From NCBI GenBank assembly GCA_023246655.1, contig JAHFHX010000005.1, positions 67 through 64,066 on the forward strand: a stretch of 64,000 nt of DNA, given 5' to 3'. Within the stretch, counting starts at the first letter, position 1. Each line of letters begins with the position of its first letter. This document shows, piece by piece, positions 2,806 to 63,974 of this stretch. The translations under genes and the position numbers were made by a program. The DNA comes from Candidatus Magasanikiibacteriota bacterium (GTDB taxonomy: Bacteria > Patescibacteriota > Patescibacteriia > Magasanikbacterales > GWA2-37-8). A model generated the notes under the pieces. That model was not told the DNA's origin and did no database searches. It saw only the letters and a program-made list of their open reading frames with translations.

Positions 2806-5217
2806 TTAATCATTGGGGTCTGATTGGTCATTGGTCATTTGAGTTTGGTCATTTAAAACAACACCTCCCGCATCCATGGTCTGCTCTTCAGCGGGAATTT
2901 CGTCCTCTTGGGCGAGTCGAAGATGTTCGGTAAATACTTCGCGTGGTTTGGCACCATCAGCTGGTCCTACTATACCATTCTCTTCCAGCTCGTCAAGAAG
3001 CCGCGCAGCGCGGGCATAGCCTACTTTCATTCGGCGTTGCAAAAGTGATGCACTGGCTTTACCCGATTCCAAAACAATTTTTTTAGCATCCTCAAACAAG
3101 GGGTCTTGGTCATCGCTGACCCCACCAAACATATTTACCGTGCCACCGCTGTTCGTTTTCGCAACAATCGAATCATCATACTCTGGCGGTTCGTCACCCT
3201 TTAGGTAGTTTACTACTTCTTTCATTTCTTCTTCCGAAACGTAGGCACCCTGGAGTCGTTTTGGTTTAGAGAGCTCAGCGGTTAAGAACAGCATGTCGCC
3301 GCGTCCCAACAGTTTGTCGGCACCGGGACAATCTAAAATCGTTCGTGAATCAACAATTGATGCTACTGAAAAGGCAATTCGTGCCGGAATATTAGCCTTC
3401 ATAAGTCCGGTGATGACTTCCACGCTTGGTCGCTGAGTTGCCACGACCAAGTGAATTCCCACTGCGCGTGCCATTTGGGCGAGGCGGATAATTCCAGCCT
3501 CTACCTCGCTGGCTGCCGTCGCCATCAGATCAGCCAATTCGTCAATCACAAAAACAATGTATGGTATCTTTTCCTCCGCAGTTTTATTATACGAAAGAAT
3601 GTCGCGTTTACCGGCGGTGGACAACACATCAAAGCGTCGTTCCATTTCACCCAGCGTCCATTTAAGAGCGTTAATCGTTTTGCCAGCATCAGTTATGACC
3701 GGCGTTAAAAGATGTGGAATACCATTATACAGGGTTAACTCCACTCGTTTCGGATCAACCATAATCATGCGTAATGTTTCCGGTGTATTTTGAAACAAGA
3801 GACTGAGAATAATAGTATTGATACAGACTGTTTTCCCCGAGCCGGTCGCACCGGCAATAAGGAGGTGAGGCATTTTTGGGAGGTCGCCTAACCACACTTT
3901 GCCCGCAACGTCTTTTCCAATAGCAATCATCATGGAATGTTCCCGGGTTTTATAGTCCTGAGTTTCCAATAGTTCACGTAGCGTCACCACGGCAACTTTT
4001 TGATTTGGCACTTCAATTCCGACCAATGACTGCCCGGGAATTGGTGCTTCAATCCGAATGGGATGCGCCGCCAAAGAAAGTGCTAAATCATTTGCCAGTG
4101 CTGTGATACGGGTTAACTTGATTCCCTTGGATGGCTTGAGCGAATATTGCGTCACCGTCGGCCCCACTCGCACTTCACCCATGTCCACCTCGATGCCAAA
4201 ATTTTGTAGAGTATCTTTAATGGTCTCGGCATTCGCTTTAATATCTCCCGAGGTTGGTTTGCTCTTAGATGCACGCAGAATGTCAATCGGCGGAACGTTT
4301 TTATATACCACGGGGGGTTTATGGATAGAAATTTTTTCTTCCGCCGGTTCTTCAGAGTCCGGGGGATCTTTTTCTTCGCTATGCGTTTTTTTTAAAACAT
4401 TTTTATGTTGAAAAATACGTGCCTCCTCGGTTTCATCATCAACGTTCGTTTGGTCGCCTACTAATTCTTCCGCTGCTTCGCTCGGGGGAACAGTGGTTTC
4501 ATAATCGCCTTTGATTTTAAATTTCACGGCGTCTGATTTTTTAAATGAAGCAAAAAACAGCACCACATGCTTACCTAGCCAGCCCAAGACCAAAAAAAAT
4601 TTTTTATGAACAGCCACAATTTGCGCCAGGGAGGTATTAAAGAGAAAGATGATCGAAGCGAGCAGTAGCCCTATGAGAATAAGGAGCGCCCCCCAATAAC
4701 CGACATACGTTCCAAGTGGCCAAGCCAAGGCAAGCCCGACAAGCCCACCACCATAACCCTGTAGTGCCAGCGTCGTCATATCAGCTACCGGTTTGTGCAG
4801 ATGAATGAGGCCGTTGAAACTCAAGAAAAATAGAACTGAACCAAGGGTATGGGTGGAACGATACTCATATTTTACATCCTTTATGAGGAGTGCGGCGACA
4901 ACACCAAGCACGAGGGGGAAGATATAGCGTACCTGGCCAAAAACAATAGCCAGTAACGAATCAATAAACTGTCCTGCGACTCCAGCGAGCGAAAAAAAAC
5001 TAAGGGCGGCAAGACCGGCCACGATACATAACAAAATTGCCAACAGTCCCGGACTGATCTCGGGGTTTACGTCGATTTTTTCATACCAGGTAACCTTTCG
5101 GCGGCGCGGGTAAGAATGAGAGCGTGCGTAGCGCATGGAAGGGAGTATGAAATTAAGGGAATTATTCAGGAGTAAATAACTACGTTTACAATCATGACGA
5201 TGCCCATAGTATAACAT
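2806..5217 (-). CDS. ftsK: DNA translocase FtsK/SpoIIIE
   Basis: N-terminal TM helices, Walker A GATGSGKTV, C-terminal gamma winged-helix (RRMKVGYARAARLLDELE). Confidence 0.9.
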   Translation of the reverse strand: MLYYGHRHDCKRSYLLLNNSLNFILPSMRYARSHSYPRRRKVTWYEKIDVNPEISPGLLAILLCIVAGLAALSFFSLAGVAGQFIDSLLAIVFGQVRYIFPLVLGVVAALLIKDVKYEYRSTHTLGSVLFFLSFNGLIHLHKPVADMTTLALQGYGGGLVGLALAWPLGTYVGYWGALLILIGLLLASIIFLFNTSLAQIVAVHKKFFLVLGWLGKHVVLFFASFKKSDAVKFKIKGDYETTVPPSEAAEELVGDQTNVDDETEEARIFQHKNVLKKTHSEEKDPPDSEEPAEEKISIHKPPVVYKNVPPIDILRASKSKPTSGDIKANAETIKDTLQNFGIEVDMGEVRVGPTVTQYSLKPSKGIKLTRITALANDLALSLAAHPIRIEAPIPGQSLVGIEVPNQKVAVVTLRELLETQDYKTREHSMMIAIGKDVAGKVWLGDLPKMPHLLIAGATGSGKTVCINTIILSLLFQNTPETLRMIMVDPKRVELTLYNGIPHLLTPVITDAGKTINALKWTLGEMERRFDVLSTAGKRDILSYNKTAEEKIPYIVFVIDELADLMATAASEVEAGIIRLAQMARAVGIHLVVATQRPSVEVITGLMKANIPARIAFSVASIVDSRTILDCPGADKLLGRGDMLFLTAELSKPKRLQGAYVSEEEMKEVVNYLKGDEPPEYDDSIVAKTNSGGTVNMFGGVSDDQDPLFEDAKKIVLESGKASASLLQRRMKVGYARAARLLDELEENGIVGPADGAKPREVFTEHLRLAQEDEIPAEEQTMDAGGVVLNDQTQMTNDQSDPND

Positions 5218-5222
5218 ACAAA

Positions 5223-5330
5223 ATGTCTAAGACCTAATATTTAATTTCTAATAAAATGACTAATCCAGCCTTCAATGACCAAGGTTGTATATGTAGAAGT
5301 TTTAGAAATTAGATATTAGGTCTTAGACAT
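5223..5330. repeat. inverted-repeat element family D (atgtctaagacctaatatttaatttctaa ... ttagaaattagatattaggtcttagacat)
   Basis: About 108 bp with perfect about 29-bp terminal IRs; paralogs at 19625-19732 and 50684-50790. Confidence 0.8.
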
Positions 5331-5332
5331 TA

Positions 5333-5360
5333 AAAAATCCCGACTCAGTCGGGATTAAAT
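5333..5360. terminator. hairpin tcccgactcagtcgggatt flanked by A-run and T-run
   Basis: Perfect 8-bp stem with A6 upstream and aaatttt downstream; bidirectional terminator-like. Confidence 0.4.
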
Positions 5361-17665: not shown

Positions 17666-18151
17666 ATGATAAGTACATTACTATCGGATTTTTCTAGAGT
17701 TTGGCTGTTTCCAAAAGATAAAAATTATCTGGGCGGGCTTAATGAGCTATATGATAAATTAAAAAAACAAGGAAAGTTCAATTTTTTTGATTATTTTGAG
17801 CTCAACGAAGAGCTTTTGACCAAAGTAAAAGATTGGAATCAAAAACTAGAGATATATATTTTTACAACTGGTCATATACAAAATACTCCGGGTGTCATAG
17901 AACGCGTTAAGCCGTTGGTGAAGGGAATTTATTCCGCGGAAGATTTACCCATTAATAAATTATCTCCCGAAGGCTTTGTCTATATGGCCCAACTCATTGG
18001 TAAAAAATCGGAAGAAATTTTGTATATCGACGATAAAGCAGCAAATCTAGAAAGAGCGCAACAGGCAGGAACAGCAATCTGCTTGTATACAGAAAATAAA
18101 TTGTTGTTTCAACATATCGATAATCTGTCTAATCAAAGTAAATCAGCGTAA
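17666..18151 (+). CDS. HAD-like hydrolase domain protein (degenerate N-terminal motif)
   Basis: C-terminal LYIDDKAANLERAQQAGT resembles HAD motif III/IV; no DxD nucleophile motif. Confidence 0.35.
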   Translation: MISTLLSDFSRVWLFPKDKNYLGGLNELYDKLKKQGKFNFFDYFELNEELLTKVKDWNQKLEIYIFTTGHIQNTPGVIERVKPLVKGIYSAEDLPINKLSPEGFVYMAQLIGKKSEEILYIDDKAANLERAQQAGTAICLYTENKLLFQHIDNLSNQSKSA

Positions 18152-18159
18152 TCTGTGTT

Positions 18160-18693
18160 ATGGTCCGCATTCTCGGTATCGACCCCGGCTTTGGCCGCAT
18201 TGGCTACGGGGTAATTGAACACAAGAAAAACAGCACTGACTGGCAAGCCGTTAGTTATGGTTGTATTTCCACCAACCCCAAGGAAACCTTCGTTGAACGC
18301 CTCAAAGACCTGCATGAAGAACTCATCGATCTCATCAAAGAATACCAGCCTACCCGCATGGCTGTGGAAGAATTATTTTTTTTCAAGAATTTAAAAACCG
18401 CCATTGAAGTTGCCCAAGCTCGTGGAGTGATTCTTCTCACGGCAGTTGAAAGCAGTCTCCCCGTCGACGAATTTACTCCGCTTCAAGTAAAACAAGCCAT
18501 GACCGGCTACGGCCGGGCCGAAAAAGGTCAAATGCAAAAAATGGTGGCGATGATTTTAGGAATCAAAGGCAAAATTAAATCCGACGACGCGGCGGATGCG
18601 CTGGCGGTGGCGCTGACGGCGGGTCAGTCACTCTGGGTCGCAAAAATAAAATCCGGATATACGGATGCATCCGGATCTACAGATAAAAAATAA
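18160..18693 (+). CDS. ruvC: crossover junction endodeoxyribonuclease RuvC
   Basis: ILGIDPGFGRIGYGVIE N-terminus, catalytic acidic residues; C-terminal 12 aa encoded by inverted repeat. Confidence 0.9.
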   Translation: MVRILGIDPGFGRIGYGVIEHKKNSTDWQAVSYGCISTNPKETFVERLKDLHEELIDLIKEYQPTRMAVEELFFFKNLKTAIEVAQARGVILLTAVESSLPVDEFTPLQVKQAMTGYGRAEKGQMQKMVAMILGIKGKIKSDDAADALAVALTAGQSLWVAKIKSGYTDASGSTDKK

Positions 18694-19133
18694 GTGATTA
18701 ATTTTATAAATATGGAGGGAAAATTACTACATGAGGAATTAACTTATAAAATTAGAGGTTTACTTTTTAATATCCATAACGAGCTCGGTAGATTTAGAAA
18801 TGAACAACAATATTGTGATGCTTTAGAAAATGTATTAAAAGAGAATAATATTGTTTATCAACGAGAATTTATTTTACCACCATCTTTTGACGGAGAGAAA
18901 AAAGGAAGGAATAAAGTTGATTTTTTAATCGAAGGAAAGATTATTATTGAAGCAAAATGCGTTTCTTTTCTTAATAAAGATAACTATTTCCAATGTCAAC
19001 GTTATCTCAACTCACTCAATCTCGATTTGGCATTATTGGTAAACTTTAGGTCTAAAAATTTGTTAATCCGACGTATTCTTAATTCTAGTCGTCTACAAAA
19101 TCCGTAAATCCGGATGCATCCGTATATCCGGAT
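18651..19133. mobile_element. IR-flanked cassette carrying a GxxExxY-family ORF
   Basis: Perfect 26-bp inverted repeats atccggatatacggatgcatccggat (18651-18676) and its reverse complement (19108-19133) flank ORF 18694-19107. Confidence 0.7.
18694..19107 (+). CDS. GxxExxY family protein (PD-(D/E)XK-like)
   Basis: 137 aa; homologous to ORF 29281-29691 at both N- and C-terminal blocks; family typical of rRNA intervening sequences. Confidence 0.7.
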   Translation: MINFINMEGKLLHEELTYKIRGLLFNIHNELGRFRNEQQYCDALENVLKENNIVYQREFILPPSFDGEKKGRNKVDFLIEGKIIIEAKCVSFLNKDNYFQCQRYLNSLNLDLALLVNFRSKNLLIRRILNSSRLQNP

Positions 19134-19144
19134 ATGGTTCCTCT

Positions 19145-19609
19145 ATGGCTAATCAGCAGTTTATCCTCATCCTCCCCAACATCCGCAGTGGCCACAACGT
19201 CGGCGCCATGTTTAGGACAGCCGACGGTGCTGGTGTCGACAAAATCTATCTCACCGGTTACAGTCCCTGTCCGCCCCATCCCCAAGTGGACAAAGTCTCC
19301 CTCGGCGCCGAAAAGTCCGTACCCTGGGAATACGTTAAACAACCCGGGCGGCTGCTCAAAAAACTCAAAGCCGAAGGGTATCATATTGTTGCCTTGGAGC
19401 AAACTAAAAAGAGTGTTACACTATACCAATGGCAGCCGCAGTTTCCCTTAGCACTTATTGTCGGCAACGAAAAAACCGGTGTCACTAAAAACCTCCTTAA
19501 GTATTGCGATGAGACAGTTGAAATCACTATGCGAGGGAAAAAGAGGAGTCTCAATGTCAGCGTGGCGGCGGGAGTAGCGATGTACTATATAGGTAGTAAA
19601 TCTATCTGA
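19145..19609 (+). CDS. SpoU/TrmH family RNA 2'-O-methyltransferase
   Basis: SPOUT fold motifs (HNVGAMFRTADGAG, LIVGNEKTGV, SLNVSVAAGVAMY). Confidence 0.8.
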   Translation: MANQQFILILPNIRSGHNVGAMFRTADGAGVDKIYLTGYSPCPPHPQVDKVSLGAEKSVPWEYVKQPGRLLKKLKAEGYHIVALEQTKKSVTLYQWQPQFPLALIVGNEKTGVTKNLLKYCDETVEITMRGKKRSLNVSVAAGVAMYYIGSKSI

Positions 19610-19624: not shown

Positions 19625-19732
19625 TCTAAGTATCTAATTTCTAATGTCTAATATAAGGTCAAATGACAAAATTGGACATTGGAAATTTTATTAGAAATTA
19701 GACATTAGGTGAATTAGACATTTATGGAGTCC
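19625..19732. repeat. inverted-repeat element family D
   Basis: ctaatttctaat ... ttagaaattag IRs, paralog of 5223-5330. Confidence 0.75.
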
Positions 19733-24118: not shown

Positions 24119-24158
24119 TTATTTTCGCTTGCCTTTTTGGCTGAATTTGTTAGAATGG

Positions 24159-24264
24159 AACACAGATTACACAGATTGACGACGAGGATTACGCAGATGT
24201 GATCCGTCAATTACCTCCGTCTTCACAATCTGTGTAGCTTACTTTAATCAGCGTAATCTGTGTT
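24159..24264. repeat. repeat family F (cacagattacgcagat / aatcagcgtaatctgtgttatg)
   Basis: Palindromic copies; 22-mer aatcagcgtaatctgtgttatg also immediately precedes ruvC ATG (18138-18159). Confidence 0.7.
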
Positions 24265-28190: not shown

Positions 28191-29180
28191 TTAAATTATT
28201 TTTTGTGGTTTTATTTTTTTAAATCTCCTTATAAATCCCTGTACACCGTTTTGATCCATCATCCCGGCCTGTGGCCCGTGTTGTTGCACCACATTACACG
28301 CATTGGCCGTGCCCCATTCGAGCGCATGGGGGATATCGTGTCCAAAATGCCTGGCCGCGATGTAAGCTGAAGAAAATGCGTCCCCAGCGCCGGTTTTCGC
28401 TACTACTTCAACAGGGTACGGATCCAAGTGCCATAATTCGTCTCTGTCACCCGCCCAGGCACCTCGTTTGGCGTCTGTCAGTGCGACTTCTCTAACCCCC
28501 ATCCCTAAAAGTTCGTGAATCACTGCCGTAATACTTTTTTCTTCTTCCTCCGTCCGCCCTAAAATTTTTTCGGCTTCTTCTTTATTAACGATCAAGAGAT
28601 CCGCTCGGCGTACCACATCACGTAAGGTCGTCAAAGCGTATTTAAGCAGGTACGAACCAGGGTTGATCGCCAATTTAATCGTCGGGTGGTCCATTAAAAG
28701 TTTTATAAGAGCCGTCTGTACTGTATCGTGGCCTTCACTTAGTCCCGTGTAATAAATCCATTCAGTCGCCGGAAAGGGTTGCGGCCATTGGTAGTTTTTT
28801 TTGTCAGTGTAGGACAATATTGTCCGTTCCTGTTTGTAATTTAAAATTATGGAATACCGAGTTTTGGCATCCTTATCAAACGTAATATAATCAGTATTTA
28901 CGTTCTGTTTTTTAAGTTCCTCAATCGCACTTTGTCCATTCATATCACCACCGACGGTGCTCACGACCGCCGTAGTCAGCCCAAGTTTTTGCGCTCCCAC
29001 CGCGACATTGGGCGCGTTACCACCCAGAGCTTGGAAACTATCAACAATCGGAATTTTAGCGCCATAATCCAGGCATAGTTCCATCTCCTTAAGTTCGGCA
29101 ACCTGACATTCCGCGCAGGAATCATCAATTTGAATGTGAGTATCAATGACGGGGTCGCCAATCGCGATTAAGTTATACAT
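28191..29180 (-). CDS. PfkB family carbohydrate kinase
   Basis: GG motif ALGGNAPN near N-terminus and TGAGDAF signature near C-terminus. Confidence 0.8.
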   Translation of the reverse strand: MYNLIAIGDPVIDTHIQIDDSCAECQVAELKEMELCLDYGAKIPIVDSFQALGGNAPNVAVGAQKLGLTTAVVSTVGGDMNGQSAIEELKKQNVNTDYITFDKDAKTRYSIILNYKQERTILSYTDKKNYQWPQPFPATEWIYYTGLSEGHDTVQTALIKLLMDHPTIKLAINPGSYLLKYALTTLRDVVRRADLLIVNKEEAEKILGRTEEEEKSITAVIHELLGMGVREVALTDAKRGAWAGDRDELWHLDPYPVEVVAKTGAGDAFSSAYIAARHFGHDIPHALEWGTANACNVVQQHGPQAGMMDQNGVQGFIRRFKKIKPQKII

Positions 29181-29192
29181 ATATGTACGAAT

Positions 29193-29724
29193 ATACGAAA
29201 TAATACGAACTTACGAACTACGAACACACCATGCATGATGTGCTAATTTAGAAACAAAATACTTACGAACTACGAACAAATTAATATTCATTAATTACTC
29301 TTTTAATTACAACTCCACGGTAAGTAAAACAGGCGATAATAGCTAATTTTAAGTTGAGCGCGGACAAGTATTGTTTTGTTTGTTCAATGACAGAAGCTGA
29401 AATAAATTCGCCGCGCTTTAATTCTAAAACAATTTTATTTTCAATCAAAAAATCAAGAAAATATTTACCGACAATTTCATTTTCGTACCGGAGAGGTACA
29501 TAAACTTGTTCGCCAAAGATAAGGTGTCTGTATCCTAGCCCAATGCCAACGGCTTTCTGGTAATATTTCTCTTGATGTCCGCCGCCAAGGCGTTTAGAGA
29601 CATCGATTAAAATGCCGTTAATAATAAAACTCAACTCTGGAAATAGTAAATCTTTTTTATTTACTACATATTGTTTCCCTCCACCAGGCATATTCGTAGT
29701 TCGTAAGTTCGTATTATTTCGTAT
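29193..29724. mobile_element. IR-flanked cassette carrying a GxxExxY-family ORF (tacgaa-type IRs)
   Basis: 33-bp IR atacgaaataatacgaacttacgaactacgaa (29193-29225) and its reverse complement at 29692-29724. Confidence 0.7.
29281..29691 (-). CDS. GxxExxY family protein
   Basis: GHQEKYY (GxxExxY) motif; homolog of ORF 18694-19107. Confidence 0.7.
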   Translation of the reverse strand: MPGGGKQYVVNKKDLLFPELSFIINGILIDVSKRLGGGHQEKYYQKAVGIGLGYRHLIFGEQVYVPLRYENEIVGKYFLDFLIENKIVLELKRGEFISASVIEQTKQYLSALNLKLAIIACFTYRGVVIKRVINEY

Positions 29725-29738
29725 GTTCGGATATAGTT

Positions 29739-30047
29739 TTATTCTCGTTCATATTCCTTAACCATGTCAGAGCTGTGCTTGTGTTTCCCTCGTATAATCT
29801 GAATTAATTCTCGTCCTGCAACGAGGAACATCAACCCCATCGCAAACATGACGATCTTGTCATGATGGACTAATGCGTACACAAAGAGCGATGCTGAAGC
29901 CACTACAAAGACCGCGTCCTGACGTTTTTCTGCTTCGAGTAATACGCCATACGCAAGTGCGAGCGCACCCATAAAGCCGACGACGTAGACGGCGAGGTCG
30001 ACGAACGAGGTTGGGAGGTTGGGAAGTAGGTTTTCGAGAGGAATCAT
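29739..30047 (-). CDS. LAB_N-like small membrane protein
   Basis: SLFVYALVHHDKIVMFAMGLMFLVAGRELIQI resembles lipid-A-disaccharide synthase N-terminal domain. Confidence 0.4.
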   Translation of the reverse strand: MIPLENLLPNLPTSFVDLAVYVVGFMGALALAYGVLLEAEKRQDAVFVVASASLFVYALVHHDKIVMFAMGLMFLVAGRELIQIIRGKHKHSSDMVKEYERE

Positions 30048-30945: not shown

Positions 30946-31435
30946 AGGATTGTAGGCGAGTAGGACGGTAGGATTGTAGAAAAATTAGTTAAAATTATTT
31001 ACCATCTTGTTGAGCATTCTCATTACTTCGTCTAATAAAGTATCGCATTTTTTAAAATCAAGCTGACTACCAAACGGTAAGCGCCTCGTGATTTCTAGTT
31101 GAGTTTCTAATTCCGATCCTGAACCAAAGGCAATGAGTAAAAATTGGCGATATTCCTTTTCACCTCCGCGGCGTCTTCCTTCAGCAATGTTTGACGGTAT
31201 AGAAACGGCAGCGCGTCTCATTTGAGATGCCAAACCATACATTTCTGACTTTGGAAATTTATCCGTTAATTCGTAAATACAAACCACCAACTCCATCGCT
31301 TTCTGCCAAACTATGAGGTCTTTGTATGTATCCCGCATATTTATTAGGATGGTAGGTGAGTAGAGTGTGGTAAACAAGTGAAAGACACTACTGCCGTAAT
31401 CACCCTACTTTCCTACCGTCCTACAATCCTATTAC
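30946..31435. mobile_element. IR-flanked cassette carrying a four-helix-bundle ORF
   Basis: gtaggacggtagga-containing IRs at 30946-30978 and 31403-31435 (reverse complement). Confidence 0.6.
30985..31377 (-). CDS. four helix bundle protein (TIGR02436 family)
   Basis: DLIVWQKAMELVV..Y.LTDKFPKSEMYGLASQMRRAAVSIPSNIAEG signature. Confidence 0.8.
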   Translation of the reverse strand: MFTTLYSPTILINMRDTYKDLIVWQKAMELVVCIYELTDKFPKSEMYGLASQMRRAAVSIPSNIAEGRRRGGEKEYRQFLLIAFGSGSELETQLEITRRLPFGSQLDFKKCDTLLDEVMRMLNKMVNNFN

Positions 31436-34745: not shown

Positions 34746-34840
34746 AATGTAAGCAGATTAAGCAGAGTAAGTTTGTAAGCAGATTAAGCAGAAATAACGT
34801 CGCGATTTTTAATCTGCCTATTCTGCTTACCTTGCTTACT
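34745..34840. repeat. repeat family G (taagcagattaagcaga palindromic)
   Basis: gtaagcagattaagcaga x2 and inverted partner aatctgcctattctgcttac. Confidence 0.6.
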
Positions 34841-34891
34841 AACTGGATTATTATATCTTTTTCCTCTATTTTTGGCAACCTCAAGAAAAAC

Positions 34892-34923
34892 AAAAAACCA
34901 CCGTTTCCCACGGTAGGTTTTTT
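34892..34923. terminator. bidirectional terminator (accgt-ttccc-acggt, A-run and T-run)
   Basis: Precedes the second copy of the conserved boundary motif. Confidence 0.5.
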
Positions 34924-34990
34924 GTCTCGTTTGTGCCCGTCTGCAACGCTAGCGCTAGCTTAGCGGGCAGGCACAAGGTGAGATGCCCGG
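34917..34990. repeat. conserved island-boundary motif, copy 2 with internal 36-bp palindrome
   Basis: ggttttttgtctcgtttgtgc[ccgtctgcaacgctagcgctagcttagcgggcaggc]acaaggtgagatgcccgg. Confidence 0.7.
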
Positions 34991-37846: not shown

Positions 37847-38069
37847 AAGCGTTATCACCCGTAATCAGCGGGGAGCTGGAGGCAGAACTCCGTCAGTCGG
37901 AAAGTAGATCCTCCCGGGTACGCCCGTTATAGCAGTAATTAAGTAAAAGCACAAGATGGTACCGTCTGCGGCTTGCCGCACCCCGAGCGCAGCCCTCGAG
38001 CAAAGTCGAGAGGCCGAAGTCGAGGGGTCGTCAAATCATGGACTCTTGGCACGTGGAAGCGTGCTTTTT
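37847..38069 (+). ncRNA. candidate structured 5' leader/sRNA upstream of ileS (weak T-box-like features)
   Basis: GC-rich, stem-rich about 220 nt bounded by promoter and terminator (gcacg-tggaa-cgtgc-ttttt); contains CCGUUA and GAUGGUACCGUC; not confidently classified. Confidence 0.3.
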
Positions 38070-38155
38070 AATTTTCAATTTACAATCAAGGCCCAATATA
38101 TCAATGATGCCTTCAAAATTCATTGGAAATTGAAAATTATAAATTGAAAATTTTT
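38066..38155. repeat. palindromic repeat family I (aattttcaatttacaat ... attgaaaattataaattgaaaatt)
   Basis: Between leader terminator and ileS ATG; same IR family flanks the 4HB cassette at 51975-52431. Confidence 0.65.
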
Positions 38156-45187: not shown

Positions 45188-45251
45188 TTCTCATAACGCG
45201 TAACGTGGAACTTGGAGCGTTACGCGTTTTACGTTATGCGTTACACGAAAT

Positions 45252-45833: not shown

Positions 45834-45841
45834 ACTTTCAA

Positions 45842-45944
45842 CTGTCATTCCGAGCGAGGCGTTGCAGCCGACGAGGGATCTCTGGCTCAATCAACATTGG
45901 GTGGTCAAGTGAGCCAGAGATCCCTCCTGCGGTCGGGATGACAA
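45842..45944. repeat. family A palindromic element (intergenic ruvA/pyrF)
   Basis: tgtcattccgagcgaggc...gagggatctctggctca / tgagccagagatccctc...gggatgacaa. Confidence 0.8.
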
Positions 45945-45952
45945 TTGGAGTG

Positions 45953-50683: not shown

Positions 50684-50790
50684 TCCTAAGTACCTAATTT
50701 CTAATATCTAATATAATGCCCAATGCCAAATTTGACATTTTGATTTAGGAATTTTATTAGAAATTAGATATTAGATGAATTAGAAATTAT
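50684..50790. repeat. inverted-repeat element family D
   Basis: Paralog of 5223-5330 and 19625-19732. Confidence 0.75.
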
Positions 50791-51974: not shown

Positions 51975-52431
51975 TAATTTTCAATTTTTAATTTACAATT
52001 TTCAATGAATGATCAATTTCCAATTCAGCTCTTTTTACCGTCTAACGTCATTAAAATTTTTTGAAAAATCAACGTTAACTCCTGAGCTTCTTTCCAATTT
52101 ATTCGCAATTCCTCTTGTCTATTTGCGTCGGTGGTCGCTAACATTCTTAACCAATGTTTTGTCTCCTGAACTTCCTTTTTACAAATATAAATTTTATTTC
52201 TAAAATCTTTTGGTGATGAGGCGCCATTAGCCTCCATATAATTTGCTCCAACACTCGTAGCCGACCGTAGTATCTGGGAAACAATAGAACGATTAAATTC
52301 ATTAAGTGTCAAACTCTTACAAAATTTAATAATAATCTCACCAAAGCGAGCCGTCCTATCTTCCAAATCATATTTTGAAAATTGAGTCATTGCAAATTGA
52401 TTGAAAATTGTAAATTAAAAAATTGAAAATT
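51975..52431. mobile_element. IR-flanked cassette carrying a four-helix-bundle ORF
   Basis: About 33-bp IRs aattttcaatttttaatttacaattttcaat / attgaaaattgtaaattaaaaaattgaaaatt. Confidence 0.7.
52025..52390 (-). CDS. four helix bundle protein (TIGR02436 family)
   Basis: FPK.E...L..Q..RSATSVGANYMEANG signature. Confidence 0.8.
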   Translation of the reverse strand: MTQFSKYDLEDRTARFGEIIIKFCKSLTLNEFNRSIVSQILRSATSVGANYMEANGASSPKDFRNKIYICKKEVQETKHWLRMLATTDANRQEELRINWKEAQELTLIFQKILMTLDGKKS

Positions 52432-52896: not shown

Positions 52897-52935
52897 AAGA
52901 TATTTAATTATTTTGAGTTACAAAACATCAATTTT

Positions 52936-53138
52936 TGTCATCCCGAGCGCACGAGGGATCTCTGGCTCACACATTTGTCATTTCGAGCGGAGTGACGCCT
53001 CGCGGCGGAACGAAGTCGAGAAATCTCGTCGTATCGTTGCGAGATTCATCCACTACGCTCCTTCGTCGTCGCTTCGGTCGGAATGACAAGTAAGCCAGAG
53101 ATCCCTCGTCGGCTGCGAAGCCTCGCTCGGGATGACAG
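52936..53138. repeat. tandem family A elements between pyrB stop and pyrI start
   Basis: Two adjacent copies of gtcatcccgagcg...gagggatctctggctca ... gggatgacag. Confidence 0.8.
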
Positions 53139-53144
53139 TGTATG

Positions 53145-54083: not shown

Positions 54084-54196
54084 CCCCCCTCGAGGGGGGC
54101 TCACGGGGGGTGTAAGACTCTTGTGTGGCCGTTTCGTCGTCCAACCGTTAGCGACGCAAAGGTCTCACACCCCCACTACCCCCCTCGAGGGGGGAA
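54084..54196. repeat. family B palindromic element overlapping the carB 3' end
   Basis: cccccctcgaggggggc...ggtgtaag...tctcacaccccc...cccctcgagggggg; supplies the last about 15 codons and stop of carB. Confidence 0.75.
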
Positions 54197-57100
54197 TTTA
54201 CAAATTCCTGCCACGAGAGAGGCACTCCGTCCTTTTTTGCTCTATTCGTCAAACAATCCAGAAACAACATTGCCGTTTGCAGGTTGGTAATAATAGGCAC
54301 GTGATGGTTAATAGCCATGCGGCGAATTTGGTAACCATCAGTCGTCACTTTCTTGCCCTGGCCACTTGGAATATTTATTACCACATCCACCTCGCGCTCC
54401 GCAATTGCTGTCAACACATTTGGCTCACCGCCCTCGCGTGCTTTATATAAAAAAGCCGAGGCAATACCGTGGCGTGACAGAAAATCGTGCGTGCCTTCAG
54501 TAGCATAAATGTTCCACCCCTCTTCGTCAAGCTGTTTAATAGCCGGCAGAAGTTCTAATTTTTTATCGCCACCAATGGAGAGTAAAATATTTTTGCCCTT
54601 AACCGTTTGTTCAGTCGCAAGCCAGGACATAAAGAACGCTTCTTGGTAGTTGCGCCCCAGGCACGCCACCTCGCCAGTCGAGGCCATCTCCACACTGGCA
54701 ATCGGGTCCGACCCTTTGAGTCGGTTATAAGAGAATTGCGGGGTTTTTACCCCCACATAGTCCAAATCAAGGGTAAAATACTGGGCTGGCACGTGACGAC
54801 CCAGCATCACTTGCGTGGCAATCTCAATAAAATTATGGCCGGTCACTTTGGAAACAAACGGAAAAGAGCGTGAAGCACGTAAATTACATTCAATAACTTT
54901 AACCTCATTATTTTTGGCCAGCAGTTGAAAGTTAAAAGGCCCGGTAATGTTAAGCGCCGCCACAATCTGGCGCGCGATGTGTTTTGCTTGGCGAATTGTT
55001 TCGAGGTAGAGCCGCTGTGGTGGAAGTACAATGGTCGCGTCTCCCGAATGTACGCCCGCATTTTCAATATGTTCCGAAATTGCCTTAATCACAATTTCTC
55101 CATCCTGCGCCACGCCATCCACCTCCAATTCTTTTGCTCCAGTAATAAATTTTGACATTACCACCGGGTGCTCGGGCGACACAATCGCCGCTTCGCCCAA
55201 ATATTTCTCCAATTCTTCGTCACTCCACACCACATTCATGGCTGTGCCGGAAAGAATATATGAAGGGCGGATGATAAGAGGATACTGAACATCACTCGCA
55301 AATTTTTTAGCGGCCGAGAGGTTAGTCACTTCTTGCCAGGTTGGCTGGTCTATTTTAAGTTTATTCAAAAGTGCGGAAAATTTTTGACGATTTTCAGCGA
55401 TGTCGATTGATTGGGGGGAGGTGCCGAGGATGAGCATCGTCGGTTTACTGTCATCCCGACGACGAAGGAGGGATCTCTGGCTTACCGATTCAACTGTCAT
55501 CCCGAGCGAGGCCTCGCGGCCGACGAGGGATCTTTGTCCGTCGATTGGTGAGCCAGAGATTCCTTGTCGCTGCGGCGCTCCTCGGAATGACAATTGAGGG
55601 TATGCCTTCGCGAGTGGAAGTGCCAAATTATTCGGAATTTGCCCACCCACCGACACAATGATCCCCTTGGGATTTTCAAAATCCGCAATGTCGCGCACTC
55701 TTTCCAAAGTTAATTCTTCAAAATACAAACGATCTGATTCGTCATAATCAGTGGAGACCGTTTCCGGGTTAGAGTTGATAATAATGGGGGATTCATCTAG
55801 TTTGCGCAGTGTCCGGGCGGTGTTGACGGCGCACCAATCAAATTCTACGGATGATCCGATACAGTACGGGCCAGAGCCAAGGACGATAATGGATTTTTTT
55901 GTACTCGGTTTTATATCATGTTCGGTGCCATGATACGTTGTGTAAAGATAATTAGTTTCGGCAGAAAATTCTCCAGCCAAAGTATCAATTTGTTTTATCA
56001 CCGGCGTAATTTTATTTTTAATGCGCAGTTCTCGGATTTTGTCTTCGGTTGAGTTGATTAATTTGGCGATGGTTTTGTCGGAGAAGCCGAATTGTTTGGC
56101 GGTGCGGAACAACTCCCCCCTCGAGGGGGGTAGTGGGGGTGTGAGTCCTTTGCGTCGCGGATCATTCGCCAACCGTGAGCCACGCAGGGGTCTTACACCC
56201 CCCATGAGGCCCCCCTCGAGGGGGGATTTGCGAACGCTGTGTTCAACATCCACAATCGCCTTCACATGCTCCAAAAACCATTTATCAATCTTCGACATCT
56301 CATGAATTTTCTCCACACTCATCCCACCACGCATCGCCTTATAAATTGCAAACAAACGCCGATCGGTTGGGTGTTCAATTTCCGCCTCGGGATCAGGAAT
56401 ATCATGCGGATAGTCACTCAAGCCATTGGCGCCAATGTTTAACATGCGCACGGCTTTTTGGAGCGCCTCCGGAAATGATCGCCCAATTGCCATCACCTCA
56501 CCAACACTTTTCATTTCCGATCCAATGGTCCGTTCCGCGATTTTAAATTTCGTTAAATCCCACCGCGGAATTTTCACCACGAGATAGTCGAGCGCCGGTT
56601 CAAAACAGGCGGACGTTTTTTTCGTCACGGAATTTCGGAGTTCATGCAATTGTTTCCCCAGCGCTAGTTTCGCAGCGACGAACGCAAGGGGATACCCAGT
56701 GGCTTTAGATGCGAGCGCACTCGACCGGCTCAACCGCGCGTTCATCTCAATCACGCGGTAATCGCCGTTCTTAGGGTTCAGCGCATACTGAATATTACAT
56801 TCGCCGACAATTCCCATTGCTCGCGCTACCTTGATAGCTACCTCGCGCAGCATGTGATACTCCTCATTCGTCAGCGTCTGCGACGGCGCGACCACAATGC
56901 TCTCGCCCGTATGAATACCCATGGGGTCAAAATTTTCCATGTTACACACCGTAATGGCGGTGTCATTACTATCGCGCACAATTTCGTATTCAATTTCTTT
57001 CCACCCGCCCAAATATTCTTCAATCAAAATTTGGGGAGCACCATGCAGTGCTTCCCCGGCGCGTTCGCGGAGTTCAGCCTCATTCTCAATTTTTCCTGAT

Positions 57101-57627
57101 CCTAATCCGCCGAGCGAAAAACCCGAGCGCATCATAATCGGGTATTTTATTTTTTTTGCTGCCTCAAGGGCTTCCTCCACCGTCGTCACCGCAAAACTCA
57201 CCGGAGTCTTAATCCCAATCTTAGTCAAAGCCCTCTTGAAGAAATCCCGATCCTCAGTAATGCGTATCGCTTCCACTGGAGTCCCGAGAACCACAACCCC
57301 ATTTTTTTTTAACACCCCTTTTGCCTCCAACGCGAGCCCCAAATTCAGCGCCGTCTGCCCGCCAAAACCCAAGAGGATCCCGTCCGGTTTTTCTTTTTTA
57401 ATAATTTGCGAAACGGTTTCTAAATTGAGTGGCTGTAAATAAACCGTGTCTGCCATCCCCGGGTCCGTTTGCACCGTGGCAATATTGGGGTTCACGAGTA
57501 CGGTAAAAATTCCCTCTTCTTTAAGAGCTTTAATGGCCTGTGAGCCGGAGTAATCGAATTCGCCAGCTTGGCCAATGCGGAGACCGCCGGAGCCGAGGAG
57601 GAGGATTTTTTTAATTTGTTTGGGCAT
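54148..57627 (-). CDS. carB: carbamoyl-phosphate synthase large subunit
   Basis: Two ATP-grasp halves, oligomerisation and MGS-like domains; two extra internal inserts. Confidence 0.95.
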   Translation of the reverse strand: MPKQIKKILLLGSGGLRIGQAGEFDYSGSQAIKALKEEGIFTVLVNPNIATVQTDPGMADTVYLQPLNLETVSQIIKKEKPDGILLGFGGQTALNLGLALEAKGVLKKNGVVVLGTPVEAIRITEDRDFFKRALTKIGIKTPVSFAVTTVEEALEAAKKIKYPIMMRSGFSLGGLGSGKIENEAELRERAGEALHGAPQILIEEYLGGWKEIEYEIVRDSNDTAITVCNMENFDPMGIHTGESIVVAPSQTLTNEEYHMLREVAIKVARAMGIVGECNIQYALNPKNGDYRVIEMNARLSRSSALASKATGYPLAFVAAKLALGKQLHELRNSVTKKTSACFEPALDYLVVKIPRWDLTKFKIAERTIGSEMKSVGEVMAIGRSFPEALQKAVRMLNIGANGLSDYPHDIPDPEAEIEHPTDRRLFAIYKAMRGGMSVEKIHEMSKIDKWFLEHVKAIVDVEHSVRKSPLEGGLMGGVRPLRGSRLANDPRRKGLTPPLPPSRGELFRTAKQFGFSDKTIAKLINSTEDKIRELRIKNKITPVIKQIDTLAGEFSAETNYLYTTYHGTEHDIKPSTKKSIIVLGSGPYCIGSSVEFDWCAVNTARTLRKLDESPIIINSNPETVSTDYDESDRLYFEELTLERVRDIADFENPKGIIVSVGGQIPNNLALPLAKAYPQLSFRGAPQRQGISGSPIDGQRSLVGREASLGMTVESVSQRSLLRRRDDSKPTMLILGTSPQSIDIAENRQKFSALLNKLKIDQPTWQEVTNLSAAKKFASDVQYPLIIRPSYILSGTAMNVVWSDEELEKYLGEAAIVSPEHPVVMSKFITGAKELEVDGVAQDGEIVIKAISEHIENAGVHSGDATIVLPPQRLYLETIRQAKHIARQIVAALNITGPFNFQLLAKNNEVKVIECNLRASRSFPFVSKVTGHNFIEIATQVMLGRHVPAQYFTLDLDYVGVKTPQFSYNRLKGSDPIASVEMASTGEVACLGRNYQEAFFMSWLATEQTVKGKNILLSIGGDKKLELLPAIKQLDEEGWNIYATEGTHDFLSRHGIASAFLYKAREGGEPNVLTAIAEREVDVVINIPSGQGKKVTTDGYQIRRMAINHHVPIITNLQTAMLFLDCLTNRAKKDGVPLSWQEFVNSPLEGGSGGVRPLRR
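55448..55593. repeat. family A element inserted in frame in carB
   Basis: Translates to ...GQRSLVGREASLGMTVESVSQRSLLRRRDDSK... inside carB. Confidence 0.75.
56114..56226. repeat. family B element inserted in frame in carB
   Basis: Translates to PLEGGLMGGVRPLRGSRLANDPRRKGLTPPLPPSRGE. Confidence 0.75.
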
Positions 57628-57636
57628 AGTCTTTAA

Positions 57637-57685
57637 CTGTCATCCCGAGCGAGGCTTCGCAGCCGACGAGGGATCTCTGTCTCAG
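57637..57685. repeat. family A half-element immediately upstream of carB start
   Basis: ctgtcatcccgagcgaggcttcgcagccgacgagggatctctgtctcag. Confidence 0.7.
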
Positions 57686-57804
57686 TTTTTACTTTATCTT
57701 AGCCAAATTTATTAAATTTCACCCTGTCGTCACTTGCTTTCTTCTTCTTCTGCTATTATGCCTTGTTCCTCTAGCGCCACGGTAGCGCGAGAAAGGAGGA
57801 CAAA

Positions 57805-58164: not shown

Positions 58165-58185
58165 TTTAAAAGGACACTCGCCATT

Positions 58186-58352
58186 TGTCATTCCGACCGC
58201 AGGAGGAATCTCTGGCTCACTCAACGGTGTCGACATCGGTCGTTGGTTGAGCCAGAGATCCCTCGTCGCCGCGAGGCTCGCTCGGGATGACAGATCGCCA
58301 TAACCATTTAGCCATGTCAACTAGATCCTTCGCTCCGACTCAGGATGACACC
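58186..58352. repeat. family A elements at carA 3' end
   Basis: tgtcattccgaccgc...gagccagagatccctcgtcgcc...gggatgacag plus half copy ctagatccttcgctccgactcaggatgaca. Confidence 0.7.
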
Positions 58353-59737
58353 AAGTTGTAGAATTTCTGAAATAAAAATTTCGTATCCGTCGGCCCCGGG
58401 CTCGCTTCCGGGTGAAACTGCACCGAAAAAAACGGCAGCGTCTCGTGCGCCACGCCTTCTACCGAATTATCATTCAAATTTCTAAAATTCACATACCAAC
58501 CCTTCGGGAGTGTTTTCTCATCCACCGCATACCCATGGTTTTGGCTGGTAATGACACACTTGCCCGAAAAGGAGCTACGCTCCCTCGGGCCAAGTTTCGT
58601 CCCTGCCCCGAGAGGGCCGCGCCCTTTTTCGGGGGCAAGTTCCATACATGGCTGATTCTGCCCGCGGTGGCCAAAGGGGAGTTTGTACGTTTTGGCGCCA
58701 GCGGCGAGCGCCATCAGTTGCGACCCCAAACAAATTCCCATAATTGGTTTTGGTTTTTTTCCGCCCGAAGCGGATCCGCCTTGGGCGGAGAGTGCCTTCT
58801 TTAAAATCGTAATCGTCTCCGTACACTGCGCCGGGTCGCCCGGGCCGTTGGAGAGGAAGAGGCCGTCGAATTTATCATTCGTGTAATCGTAATTGTAGGG
58901 CACGCGTTCAATAGTCCAGGGGAATTGTTGGAGGGAGCGGATGATGTTTTCTTTCATGCCGCAGTCCACGGCGATAATTGTTTTTGTCCGGCCAAGTCCC
59001 CCCTGTGAGGGGGGTAGGGGGGTGTGAGCCGTCGGGGACAATAAACTCGCATCCTTTGATAATTGGCGACGCACCGGTCTTACACCCCCCGGTGAGCCCC
59101 CCTCGAGGGGGGAGTTTCCGTGATACGTTTTTGGACGAGTGATTGAGACTTCGGCGACGAGATTGCGGGTATTGGGGTCGACAAAAGTGAGACCGCGAAC
59201 GAAACCCCTCTCTGTATCTCTCCCCTTATAGGAGAGAGAGTGATTGAGAGAAACGGCGATAGTTCCTTCGTTTACGGTTTTCCCTCCCCTATAAGGGGAG
59301 GGGCGCGGGGTGGGGTTTCGGTCACCGCTCACCATCGCCCCGAGCATCACCCCACTCTCCCTAATAATTTTCGTCAACGCCCGCGTATCCACGCCCATGA
59401 TAATCGGCACCTGTTCGTCCTTGAGCCACTCCAACAGCGACCGCAAGGCGGTAGCATGGCTATATTTCTCACACGCCTCACTTACCACCACTCCAGAAAG
59501 ATGAATTTTTTTGGATTCCCAGCGTCCAGGGCCAGGCACGCCGTAATTACCAATCAACGGATACGTAAACGTTAAAATTTGCCCATTATACGATGGGTCA
59601 GTCAGCGTTTCCACGTAGCCGGTCATGCCAGTGTTAAAGACGACCTCGCCATGAAAAACACCCTTCTGATGGGTGGGGGAGAGGCCAGGGAAGGATTGGC
59701 CGTTTTTTAGGAGGAGTTGGGAGGGGTTGAATTTCAT
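58340..59737 (-). CDS. carA: carbamoyl-phosphate synthase small subunit (glutamine amidotransferase)
   Basis: CarA N-domain plus class I GATase (GICLGSQ, HPE); about 85 aa longer than typical because of three palindromic inserts. Confidence 0.9.
   Translation of the reverse strand: MKFNPSQLLLKNGQSFPGLSPTHQKGVFHGEVVFNTGMTGYVETLTDPSYNGQILTFTYPLIGNYGVPGPGRWESKKIHLSGVVVSEACEKYSHATALRSLLEWLKDEQVPIIMGVDTRALTKIIRESGVMLGAMVSGDRNPTPRPSPYRGGKTVNEGTIAVSLNHSLSYKGRDTERGFVRGLTFVDPNTRNLVAEVSITRPKTYHGNSPLEGGSPGGVRPVRRQLSKDASLLSPTAHTPLPPSQGGLGRTKTIIAVDCGMKENIIRSLQQFPWTIERVPYNYDYTNDKFDGLFLSNGPGDPAQCTETITILKKALSAQGGSASGGKKPKPIMGICLGSQLMALAAGAKTYKLPFGHRGQNQPCMELAPEKGRGPLGAGTKLGPRERSSFSGKCVITSQNHGYAVDEKTLPKGWYVNFRNLNDNSVEGVAHETLPFFSVQFHPEASPGPTDTKFLFQKFYNLVSS
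58582..58616. repeat. small palindromic insert in carA (ccctcggg...ccccgagaggg)
   Basis: Encodes extra GPRERSSFSG-like segment. Confidence 0.45.
58997..59112. repeat. family B element in frame in carA
   Basis: tcccccctgtgagggggg...ggtgtgag...tcttacacccccc...cccctcgagggggg. Confidence 0.75.
59199..59319. repeat. family C element in frame in carA
   Basis: cgaaacccctctct...ccctcccctataaggggaggggcgcggggtggggtttcg; inverted copy of 758-854. Confidence 0.8.
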
Positions 59738-61642: not shown

Positions 61643-61654
61643 ACATCATGAAAA

Positions 61655-61770
61655 ATCTGCGAACATACGAACGGCTACGAACGTACGAACTACGAATAAT
61701 AATTAACGATGCCATTTTTGTTCGTAATTCGCATGTTCGTACTAAATTCGTACGTTCGTACATAATTACG
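61655..61770. repeat. repeat family E (tacgaa/ttcgta palindromic)
   Basis: cgaacatacgaacggctacgaacgtacgaactacgaa ... ttcgtaattcgcatgttcgtactaaattcgtacgttcgtac. Confidence 0.7.
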
Positions 61771-61850
61771 GTTGTTAGCTTACCATTCCTCTTGATTTTT
61801 GACAATATAAAAACCCCGAGTGAAACCCGGGGCCAAGTTGCCTGTGATAT

Positions 61851-63355: not shown

Positions 63356-63440
63356 AACTATGTACGAAATTACGAAATGTACGAAAGATACGAACTATAA
63401 AATTTCGTACCTTTCGTATTATTCGTATGTTCGCACATAA
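63356..63440. repeat. repeat family E overlapping folA 3' end
   Basis: tgtacgaaattacgaaatgtacgaaagatacgaa ... ttcgtattattcgtatgttcgcac; encodes folA C-terminal TYVRTYE. Confidence 0.65.
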
Positions 63441-63895: not shown

Positions 63896-63974
63896 AGATT
63901 ACGCAGATTATAATGGATTACGCAGATTCGAATCTGTGTAATCCACTTAAATCTGTCTGAATCTGTGTTATATC
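63891..63974. repeat. repeat family F (cacagattacgcagattcgaatctgtgta)
   Basis: Paralog of 24159-24264. Confidence 0.65.

Follow-up and report, generated by a model that had tools for sequence, protein, structure and literature searches.

An inverted-repeat element with a GxxExxY nuclease-family gene at the ruvC-spoU junction of a Magasanikiibacteriota bacterium, and its likeness to rRNA intervening sequences

How a small gene of the GxxExxY family, enclosed by two long inverted repeats, came to lie between ruvC and spoU, and why the last codons of ruvC are part of one of these repeats, are questions raised by a 64,000-nucleotide stretch of DNA (the window) from Candidatus Magasanikiibacteriota bacterium (NCBI GenBank assembly GCA_023246655.1, contig JAHFHX010000005.1, positions 67 to 64,066). 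The insertion in question, element 1, is 483 bases long and consists of two inverted arms and one small nuclease-family gene (Table 1). The explanation argued for here, with a probability of roughly 60%, is that element 1 is a foldback element resembling the intervening sequences (IVSs) of ribosomal RNA: a selfish insertion of ~480 bp in which arms and nuclease gene form one unit, and in which the arms would serve as cis sites for the element's own nuclease. The mobility of such elements is shown by comparison between genomes, while the enzymology proposed for them is inferred.

The two arms match exactly over 26 nt, with ATCCGGATATACGGATGCATCCGGAT in the left arm and its reverse complement in the right; the perfect repeats described in a first-pass annotation of this DNA were confirmed on re-inspection. 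With 2 mismatches, the inverted repeat reaches 34 nt (94%). Each arm contains the 12-nt palindrome CGGATGCATCCG and is quasi-palindromic by itself, so that the arms can also be aligned as direct repeats at 82%. Between the arms there is a single real open reading frame (ORF), as the same annotation had stated. Its length is 137 aa when read mechanically from a GTG at 18694, and 131 aa from the ATG at 18712, which is the start in homologues and in public gene calls. The TAA stop of this gene (19105-19107) falls within the extended right arm, the start codon of spoU lies 11 nt past that arm, and the GC content of the interior is 26-29%, a foreign composition compared with the ~50% of both neighbouring genes.

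Chance similarity or an assembly artefact is refuted as an explanation of this arrangement, and nothing was found in its favour. None of 100 dinucleotide-preserving shuffles of the 64-kb window yielded even 2 matches to the 26-mer, and the architecture of inverted arms and gene recurs at more than 20 independent loci. Two further, independent assemblies, L001 (ENA) and L002 (Logan), match the window at 100% identity, which makes three identical assemblies and rules out an assembly artefact; being identical, they are usable solely for this purpose and not as independent comparators.

Table 1. Element 1 and its neighbours, the other bracketed elements and one foldback hairpin, in positions of the window
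Feature	Coordinates	Strand	Remarks
ruvC	18160-18693	+	PF02075 163 bits, NF000711 203 bits; matches end at about aa 153-158 of 177
ruvC, native part	up to codon 164 (18649-18651)		
ruvC, element-encoded part	18652-18693		residues 165-177 and stop
Left arm, element 1	18651-18684	+	exact over 18651-18676; units ATCCGGAT-ATACGGAT-GC-ATCCGGAT-CTACAGAT
GxxExxY/PDDEXK_3 gene	18712-19107	+	131 aa; minimal PD-(D/E)xK nuclease family by profile scores, residues and structure model
Right arm, element 1	19100-19133	+	reverse complement of left arm; exact over 19108-19133
spoU-type RNA 2'-O-methyltransferase	19145-19609	+	PF00588, 130 bits
ORF-less foldback hairpin	19627-19724	+	CTAAT-unit arrays; diverged copies at about 5215-5335 and 50687-50790
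Element 2	29175-29742	-	50-nt arms (88%, TACGAA units); GxxExxY paralogue at 29281-29691, 32% identical to that of element 1
Element 3	30946-31431	-	27-nt arms (81%, TAGGAnnG units); four-helix-bundle gene at 30985-31377; TIGR02436 124 bits, cut-off 24
Element 4	51978-52428	-	40-nt arms (83%, TTTnCAA units); four-helix-bundle gene at 52025-52390; between pyrC and pyrI

Element 1 supplies the last 13 codons of ruvC and its stop, since its left arm begins with the third base of codon 164. The RuvC protein of the window thus ends ...SLWVAKIK followed by SGYTDASGSTDKK (residues 165-177), with the TAA stop at 18691-18693 inside the element. The first-pass annotation had placed the left repeat within ruvC and had derived the last ~12 codons and the stop from the element; the location and the stop stand, and the count becomes 13. 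The 120 closest RuvC proteins, from Candidatus Magasanikbacteria and other Patescibacteria, are mostly 162-166 aa long and align to just ~90% of the 177-aa protein of the window. The tail is absent in 118 of them, and most end ...SLW(V/I)KK(I/L)K, where the left arm begins; some tail-less orthologues carry short C-terminal extensions of unrelated sequence. The two remaining proteins are a 99%-identical variant that has the tail and one that offered no anchor in the pattern extraction and was left unassessed. The insertion reading survives this comparison of orthologues, which the annotation had suggested.

In the 99%-identical variant (P0001) the tail reads SGYTDASRSTDKK, with a G to R change. 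One possible cause is a change from CCGGAT to CCAGAT in the left arm, and a CCAGAT-type unit variant occurs in the L104 element described below.

Empty sites are found in close relatives. In L004 (RuvC 85% identical) and L005 (a Magasanikbacteria genome, 81-82%), ruvC runs into spoU: the spoU ATG lies within the Leu-Trp codons of ruvC (cTATGGc), and the two genes overlap by ~25 nt (3461-3500 in both loci). In most syntenic relatives, the projected spoU start lies between -35 and about +120 nt from the end of ruvC, compared with 451 nt in the window, and no GxxExxY gene was found at ruvC-spoU in 80 species-representative ruvC loci. If 18651-19133 is removed in silico, the protein ends ...KIKWFLYG* and its stop overlaps the spoU ATGGCTAA, which is a plausible tight junction. 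Since relatives have an empty junction and no tail, element 1 is a lineage-specific insertion. A second GxxExxY element occupies the ruvC-spoU gap of L006 (RuvC 85% identical), where the encoded protein is 47% identical to that of the window and the arm units differ; the ruvC-spoU junction was thus reached independently by two element lineages. The comparison of loci thus shows that element 1 inserted into a ruvC/spoU junction that is empty in relatives, and that ruvC lost its own stop. The 13-residue tail would be a tolerated by-product of this event and not a functional extension.

In both filled sites (window 18630-19160 and L006) the spoU ATG found within ruvC in the empty sites is gone, and spoU begins just past the right arm. 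The overlap of ruvC and spoU may have been duplicated upon insertion. The 11 nt ahead of the spoU start resemble ruvC ...GGTCAGTCACTCTGG only loosely, as judged by eye in this single case.

Other variation is seen around ruvC. In L003 (RuvC 85% identical), an unrelated ORF of 235 aa lies in reverse orientation in the ruvC-spoU gap (2170-2877, minus); it has no recorded Pfam match and no inverted-repeat bracket. A gene for a HAD-family hydrolase, of low GC content (26-40%), lies at 17666-18151 between yebC and ruvC of the window. In L004, ruvC comes directly after yebC, and in L003 and L006 the position is taken by other genes, so that the yebC-ruvC junction is variable too.

Elements related to element 1 are found in different operons. 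In L087/L104, a protein 77% identical to that of the window (76% on the L104 gene call) is encoded between a recombinase fragment and miaA. The arms are homologous to those of element 1 and share their ATCCGGAT-ATACGGAT units, and here, too, the upstream ORF continues into the arm. A 74%-identical GxxExxY relative lies upstream of smpB, and relatives with 64-67% identity lie between gap and pgk in two species. The protein of the window is therefore 47% identical to the one at the same junction in L006 and 64-76% identical to copies at other loci, set against a RuvC identity of ~85% throughout. Homologous arms and gene in different operons, the repeated occupancy of one junction and the in-frame copies described below show, from these sequence comparisons, that this type of element has moved. 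The first-pass description of a miniature cargo-carrying inverted-repeat element is a fair one, and it generalises to three more elements in the window and to the 77%-identical copy elsewhere.

These elements fill their spacers completely, ending within ~20 nt of the next start codon where the termini could be read, and the gap between the ORF and the next gene is 1-131 nt overall. The gene has the same orientation as the downstream gene in 23 of 23 cases and as the upstream gene in 19 of 21, while the background rate of same-strand neighbours is 0.76 (P ~0.002 and 0.0006). Matches to a promoter consensus within the element were not above those in shuffles, and none was positioned to drive the ORF. 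Co-orientation together with the lack of an own promoter above chance indicates that the gene rides on the operon transcript.

The arms of GxxExxY elements are more than arbitrary complementary stretches: they are tandem arrays of 8-9-nt units. Among 18 such elements, the 70 nt ahead of the gene contain 59 occurrences of the motif CNRAT and the 70 nt behind it 57 of its complement, where ~11 are expected in each; this is an approximately fivefold enrichment. In the reverse polarity, the counts are 18 and 15. Successive units are most often 8 nt (35 cases) or 9 nt (14 cases) apart. The units vary between loci: the arms of L104 contain ATCCGGAT, ATACGGAT, AATCCAGAT and TTACAGAT, those of L006 ATACGAAT and CTACAAAT, those of L093 GCGAAT and those of L094 GCTAAT. 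The fixed polarity of the units relative to the gene implies that arms and gene descend as one unit, and that the gene did not enter pre-existing hairpins in either orientation. In L093 (2850-2990) and L091 (2860-2990), the upstream unit arrays are part of a longer tandem duplication of ~47 nt.

The bracketing of the gene was scored as the best ungapped inverted match (+1/-2) between the 160-nt flanks of each ORF. For 381 ordinary ORFs of 90-220 aa, the median score was 8, the 99th percentile 12 and the maximum 22. The scores of 12 non-redundant GxxExxY ORFs were 40, 34, 28, 19, 15, 15, 13, 12, 11, 8, 8 and 7, and those of six ORFs for four-helix-bundle proteins, of the kind encoded in elements 3 and 4, were 23, 17, 15, 14, 8 and 7. 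The control ORFs with outlying scores (L083, L079, L020) have flanking inverted repeats and encode proteins that are unrelated as judged by sequence alone; no third cargo family was found among them.

The window contains four bracketed elements, two with GxxExxY genes and two with genes for a four-helix-bundle '23S-IVS protein', and the arm sequences of all four are different. The presence of two unrelated protein families in the same architecture is what would be expected if the genes (e.g., for defence or addiction) were passengers in hairpins resembling miniature inverted-repeat transposable elements (MITEs), mobilised in trans by an enzyme that recognises hairpins. Dispersed ORF-less hairpins of similar unit grammar, including three diverged copies of a ~100-nt repeat, fit this idea as well, and ORF-less hairpins also occur in the ruvC-spoU spacer of several relatives. 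Passive cargo is nevertheless unlikely. The CNRAT array and its polarity are specific to GxxExxY, and no CNRAT enrichment was found in four-helix-bundle elements, which use other units; the motif is kept across phyla at 30-40% protein identity, as expected of co-evolution between a protein and its site; and no candidate transposase was found among the ~17 window ORFs that were scanned against Pfam or NCBIfam.

Similar unit arrays flank GxxExxY genes outside the Patescibacteria, including those of Bacteroidota and Spirochaetota. The gene of Bacteroides finegoldii has CACAGAGGA units and a bracketing score of 21, that of Bernardetia has a score of 16, and that of Treponema saccharophilum is flanked by ACACGGATTCG units. 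In a Gemmatirosa replicon, a hairpin of CGCGGAT units lies directly 3' of the gene. In two contigs from a viral collection, the GxxExxY genes lie between inverted repeats, of 33 nt (94%) in one and 26 nt (92%) in the other. The scan of viral contigs for relatives yielded just three loci, indicating that the family is not centred on phages. Taken across phyla, the sequences show a unit motif that is particular to GxxExxY elements and recurs with them, so that arms and gene belong together. In the viral-collection contigs L123 (2308-2457) and L125 (2409-2481), the right arm has an additional copy inside the element. The left arm pairs with this nearby copy, forming a small hairpin before the gene, as well as with the distal right arm.

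The protein encoded in element 1 matches the profiles PF13366 PDDEXK_3 (84.4 bits, cut-off 22) and TIGR04256 GxxExxY (83.8 bits, cut-off 35). These are the sole profile matches in element 1, and no recognised transposase family is among them. In an alignment of 27 family members, E31, D70, K82, Q94 and Y98 are invariant and E80 is present in at least 90%; these residues comprise the PD-(D/E)xK catalytic set together with the signature glutamate and tyrosine of the GxxExxY family. An AlphaFold2 model (mean predicted local confidence, pLDDT, 92; predicted template modelling score, pTM, 0.85) has the classic restriction-endonuclease-like core of alpha-beta-beta-beta-alpha-beta. The best Foldseek matches are Cas4, lambda-type exonucleases, MGME1 and the R2 endonuclease domain, with template modelling scores of ~0.5 and E-values of ~1e-3. 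By its predicted fold, the protein is a minimal DNA nuclease of the Cas4/RecB type without a close characterised relative. A sequence search of solved structures gave no significant relative, the match to T7 endonuclease I at E = 0.86 being noise.

The family is large and poorly described. A profile search of 1.84 billion representatives gave 21,783 GxxExxY cluster representatives at E <= 1e-3. PF13366 is listed with 'function unknown' in a superfamily census of 2012, which notes 'multiple transfers, mixed clades' (PMC3424549). GxxExxY proteins are nearly absent from the searchable literature, where the term occurs in three papers, and the one mention that was examined was incidental.

Among the 150 best representatives of the family, 49 exceed 295 aa and 40 are of 240-295 aa, many of the latter with two GxxExxY stretches. 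In a Pfam scan of 19 long or doublet representatives, 13 were housekeeping enzymes with PDDEXK_3 embedded in-frame. In RecG the insertion lies between helicase motifs II and III, in two scanned full-length representatives and, as judged from sequence, in P0288. In GatB, embedding at the same position was seen twice. Further hosts are FolD, enolase, a transketolase-family protein, asparagine synthase (AsnB), an M50 peptidase and GT4 glycosyltransferases. The proteins with embedded copies include P0280 (locus L134, 2863-3410), P0288, P0358, P0342, P0299, P0284, P0333, P0259, P0319, P0338 and P0295.

At the DNA level, the whole element of L134, including both arms, is in the recG frame. Its left arm reads …CGCGGAT…GCGCAGAT·CGACGCAGAT, and its right arm contains four or five ATCTGCG-type units. 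The insert has 39% GC, compared with 50-51% in recG, and all the nearest RecG homologues lack it. In the embedded copies that were inspected (RecG, AsnB and GT4 proteins), the catalytic motif is intact by eye. The RuvC tail of the window is the mild end of this spectrum of arms that are read as protein. Stop codons in the arms are slightly fewer than expected (23 compared with 29.7 in left arms, P ~0.05; 21 compared with 25.5 in right arms, P ~0.13), and as this depletion is only marginal, no adaptation of the arms for translation is claimed. P0299 contains a second in-frame hairpin insert, which has no ORF.

The in-frame insertions speak against the view that GxxExxY is a domesticated host gene, i.e., a small repair or defence nuclease whose inverted repeat is a regulatory RNA (a processing site, translational coupler or terminator), since they interrupt the conserved enzymes RecG, GatB and enolase. 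Such a view would account for the purifying selection on catalytic residues, the strict operon orientation and the lack of identical multicopy elements in the window, as well as for a gap-pgk copy that is conserved between two species. It is very unlikely in light of the patchy presence of the gene among relatives with ~85% RuvC identity, the occurrence of arms and gene at unrelated loci and the multiple transfers recorded for PF13366 (PMC3424549).

Repeated occupancy of the same sites raises the question of homing. The ruvC-spoU junction was reached by two elements that are 47% identical, the recG motif II/III site by two subclades and the GatB site twice. A GxxExxY nuclease that cuts empty sites, with the element then copied by recombinational repair, would produce this pattern; the arms would be an RNA-level insulator that protects the operon. 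The predicted DNA-nuclease fold, a PD-(D/E)xK homing endonuclease among the weak structural matches and the lack of a target-site duplication are compatible with such a process. Homing endonuclease genes are, in addition, small nuclease genes in or between housekeeping genes, with recurrent site occupancy and a sporadic distribution. They differ from the present elements, in which there is no Hint domain (the embedded copies included) and no intron ribozyme according to Rfam, and in which inverted arms are conserved. Arms are unnecessary for homing, yet these carry a conserved polar motif beyond complementarity; the occupied sites have no evident common target sequence; and recurrence at the same junction could reflect the few tolerated sites of a compact genome. 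Homing as the whole explanation is thus distinctly unlikely.

The closest known counterparts of the present elements are the IVSs of bacterial 23S rRNA. The IVS of Coxiella burnetii is 428-444 nt long and contains GACAGAT heptamers; its terminal stem has 28 bp, and the loop carries an ORF (PMC4990558). RNase III cuts its stem at the first repeat, and its excision was shown experimentally (PMC4990558). The origin and mobility of IVSs were called unclear in 2016, with older hypotheses proposing a 'transposon remnant' or a mobile element with an ORF-encoded mobility factor (PMC4990558). The protein encoded in rRNA IVSs belongs to the four-helix-bundle 'S23p' family, TIGR02436/PF05635 (PMC4990558). 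The first-pass annotation had stated that the GxxExxY family is otherwise known from rRNA IVSs; this needs correcting, the family known from them being S23p. No record of GxxExxY inside an rRNA IVS was found in the searched literature, in which the coverage of subscription journals is thin, so that this absence is weak evidence. Under the same coverage, no description of IVS-type elements outside rRNA was found, and scans of the window with Rfam and for tRNAs gave no rRNA, intron or tRNA. The link of the window elements to IVSs holds indirectly, because four-helix-bundle genes occupy similar brackets in the window.

The comparison with the 23S rRNA IVSs of Coxiella, and of Leptospira as cited (PMC4990558), reveals several shared traits. 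Both kinds of element are ~430-480 nt long with a terminal stem of similar length (26-34 bp here, 28 bp in Coxiella) and a single small ORF in the loop, and both are sporadically distributed, consistent with horizontal spread. Tandem units of 7-9 nt lie near the ORF start, GACAGAT in Coxiella and (C/T)TACAGAT and ATACGGAT here, and elements 3 and 4 carry the IVS protein family itself. The differences are that element 1 lies between protein-coding genes, whereas IVSs lie in helix 25 or 45 of 23S rRNA; that its ORF encodes a PD-(D/E)xK protein and not S23p; and that part of one arm is translated as the tail of a host protein. Processing by RNase III was shown for the Coxiella IVS, and for element 1 it is suggested by the stem. 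When elements 1 and 2 are folded as RNA (z = -4.3 and -5.8, respectively), the arms form the terminal stem, in element 1 in the minimum-free-energy and the centroid structure alike; such a fold is expected of any inverted repeat.

In the proposed mechanism, the unit arrays would be cis-acting ends bound by the element's own PD-(D/E)xK nuclease, which may cut DNA and so help the element to be copied or transferred to further gene junctions. As the motif is specific to the family and conserved across phyla, a nuclease acting on its own arms is the most economical reading. By analogy with Coxiella, the element is probably transcribed with the operon and processed at the stem: in the operon RNA, the arms would pair into a stem of 26-34 bp, a putative RNase III substrate like the Coxiella 23S rRNA IVS, and cutting it would free the nuclease mRNA and part the ruvC message from that of spoU.

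A broader proposal, which is doubtful and should be taken as tentative, is that GxxExxY proteins are the mobility enzymes of IVS-type elements in general, which would recognise the arrays of 8-9-nt units at either end of their own element and move it into gene junctions, conserved loops of housekeeping proteins and, with other cargo, rRNA helices. In a more radical version, the nuclease would cut the RNA stem and the element would be a protein-dependent intron, against which speak the ORFs that are maintained through the embedded copies.

Several observations weigh against the reading of element 1 as a self-mobilising foldback element. The first-pass annotation had suggested a search for further copies of the 26-bp repeat, and none was found in the 64-kb window at <=3 mismatches; its 12-nt core has no other copies there either. 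With no second copy of the arms in the window, recent transposition within this genome is unsupported. No target-site duplication was evident by inspection at elements 1 and 2, L006, L104, L094 and L119, where the arm ends are fuzzy. The copies between gap and pgk (GxxExxY 68% and PGK 59% identical between the two species) look vertically inherited and selected, which could point to a function that benefits the host. L092 and L089 have no bracket, a Sphingomonas copy in a fab operon has an upstream array only, and copies in Fusobacteria and Prevotella are flanked by direct and not inverted repeats. A mobility role of the enclosed protein is weakened by the four-helix-bundle genes, which have no nuclease fold and lie in a similar bracket. 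At the RNA level, mismatches in the arms have no sense-strand bias (13 of the G·U type and 11 of the A·C type), giving no independent sign of selection for an RNA stem, so that processing by RNase III is proposed by analogy. Finally, no biochemical report on the GxxExxY family was found in the searched literature.

Other families of small repeats share individual traits with these elements. The Correia/NEMIS elements of Neisseria and bacterial MITEs have terminal inverted repeats, insert at gene junctions and are co-transcribed, and the Neisseria hairpins are cut by RNase III. MITEs contain no gene and occur in many near-identical copies with target-site duplications. The elements of the window resemble both in their small size, terminal inverted repeats and location at gene junctions, and the ORF-less hairpins of the window are particularly similar; they are unlike them in carrying a gene, in having arms that differ from element to element and in the lack of a visible duplication. 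RAYTs are HUH/Y1 enzymes of the IS200/IS605 type, and the associated REPINs are dispersed ORF-less hairpin doublets. A small single-copy nuclease gene that stands between inverted short motifs, with related ORF-less hairpins in spacers, may be common to that system and the present one. The fold here, however, is PD-(D/E)xK, and no further occurrence of the exact element 1 units was seen in the window. The palindromic elements of Rickettsia insert in-frame in genes and are translated as extra peptides. The RuvC tail, the RecG, GatB and enolase cases and the GC-rich palindromes in carB and carA of the window are reminiscent of them, but the Rickettsia elements are short and gene-less, whereas the elements described here carry a gene.

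Taken together, the elements form a widespread class with an IVS-like build, undescribed in the searched literature. A large family of unknown function thereby gains a genetic context, inside foldback elements whose unit arrays are polar and particular to the family, and insertion targets that include operon junctions and in-frame sites inside essential enzymes. If GxxExxY proteins were mobility enzymes, a function would be assigned to more than 20,000 protein clusters, in the form of an unusually small (~130 aa) PD-(D/E)xK nuclease, and a thirty-year-old question about the origin of rRNA intervening sequences would be answered. The operon-borne copies could open that question to experiment, as they provide sites with and without an insert, numerous independent insertions, and a candidate enzyme together with its candidate binding sites. 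There is also a practical aspect: the elements change the ends of host proteins, as in the RuvC tail, and they inflate or split gene calls in metagenome-assembled genomes (RecG, GatB or enolase with an insert of 120-190 aa), so annotators should recognise them.

Element 2, the second GxxExxY element of the window, occupies the entire spacer between a sugar-kinase gene and a gene for a small membrane protein. Its empty site is seen in L031, where the kinase gene and the upstream gene are 22 nt apart and there is no hairpin. The hairpin that follows spoU in the window likewise has no counterpart in L004, in which the spoU stop and the start of the next gene are a few nt apart; the hairpins at 5.2, 19.6 and 50.7 kb are diverged copies of one ~100-nt repeat. 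Unit types of elements 2 and 4 and of the CNRAT class recur in the ORF-less hairpins.

Intergenic hairpins without an ORF, with arms of 7-9-nt units, were observed at 1938-2020, 5215-5335, 19627-19724, 24119-24264, 34746-34932, 38065-38143, 45188-45251, 50687-50790, 61643-61850, 63356-63418 and 63904-63955. The TACGAAC unit known from element 2 is used in those at 61.7 and 63.4 kb, and the unit of element 4 in the hairpin at 38.1 kb. Hairpins of the type CTGTCAT...GATGACAG occupy the ruvC-spoU spacer of L010 and L011, and a different, long GC-rich hairpin is found there in L007.

A second family of repeats in the window consists of GC-rich nested palindromes (CTGTCATCCCGAGCGAGGC..., GAGGGATCTCTGGCTCA..., CCCCCCTCGAGGGGGG). 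They occur in spacers at 45834-45952, 52897-53144, 57628-57700 and 58180-58300, and also in-frame inside carB (54148-57627, e.g., 55469-55564 and 56110-56230) and carA (58340-59737). In carB and carA they add peptides such as SPLEGG..GGVRPLR, recalling the palindromic elements of Rickettsia.

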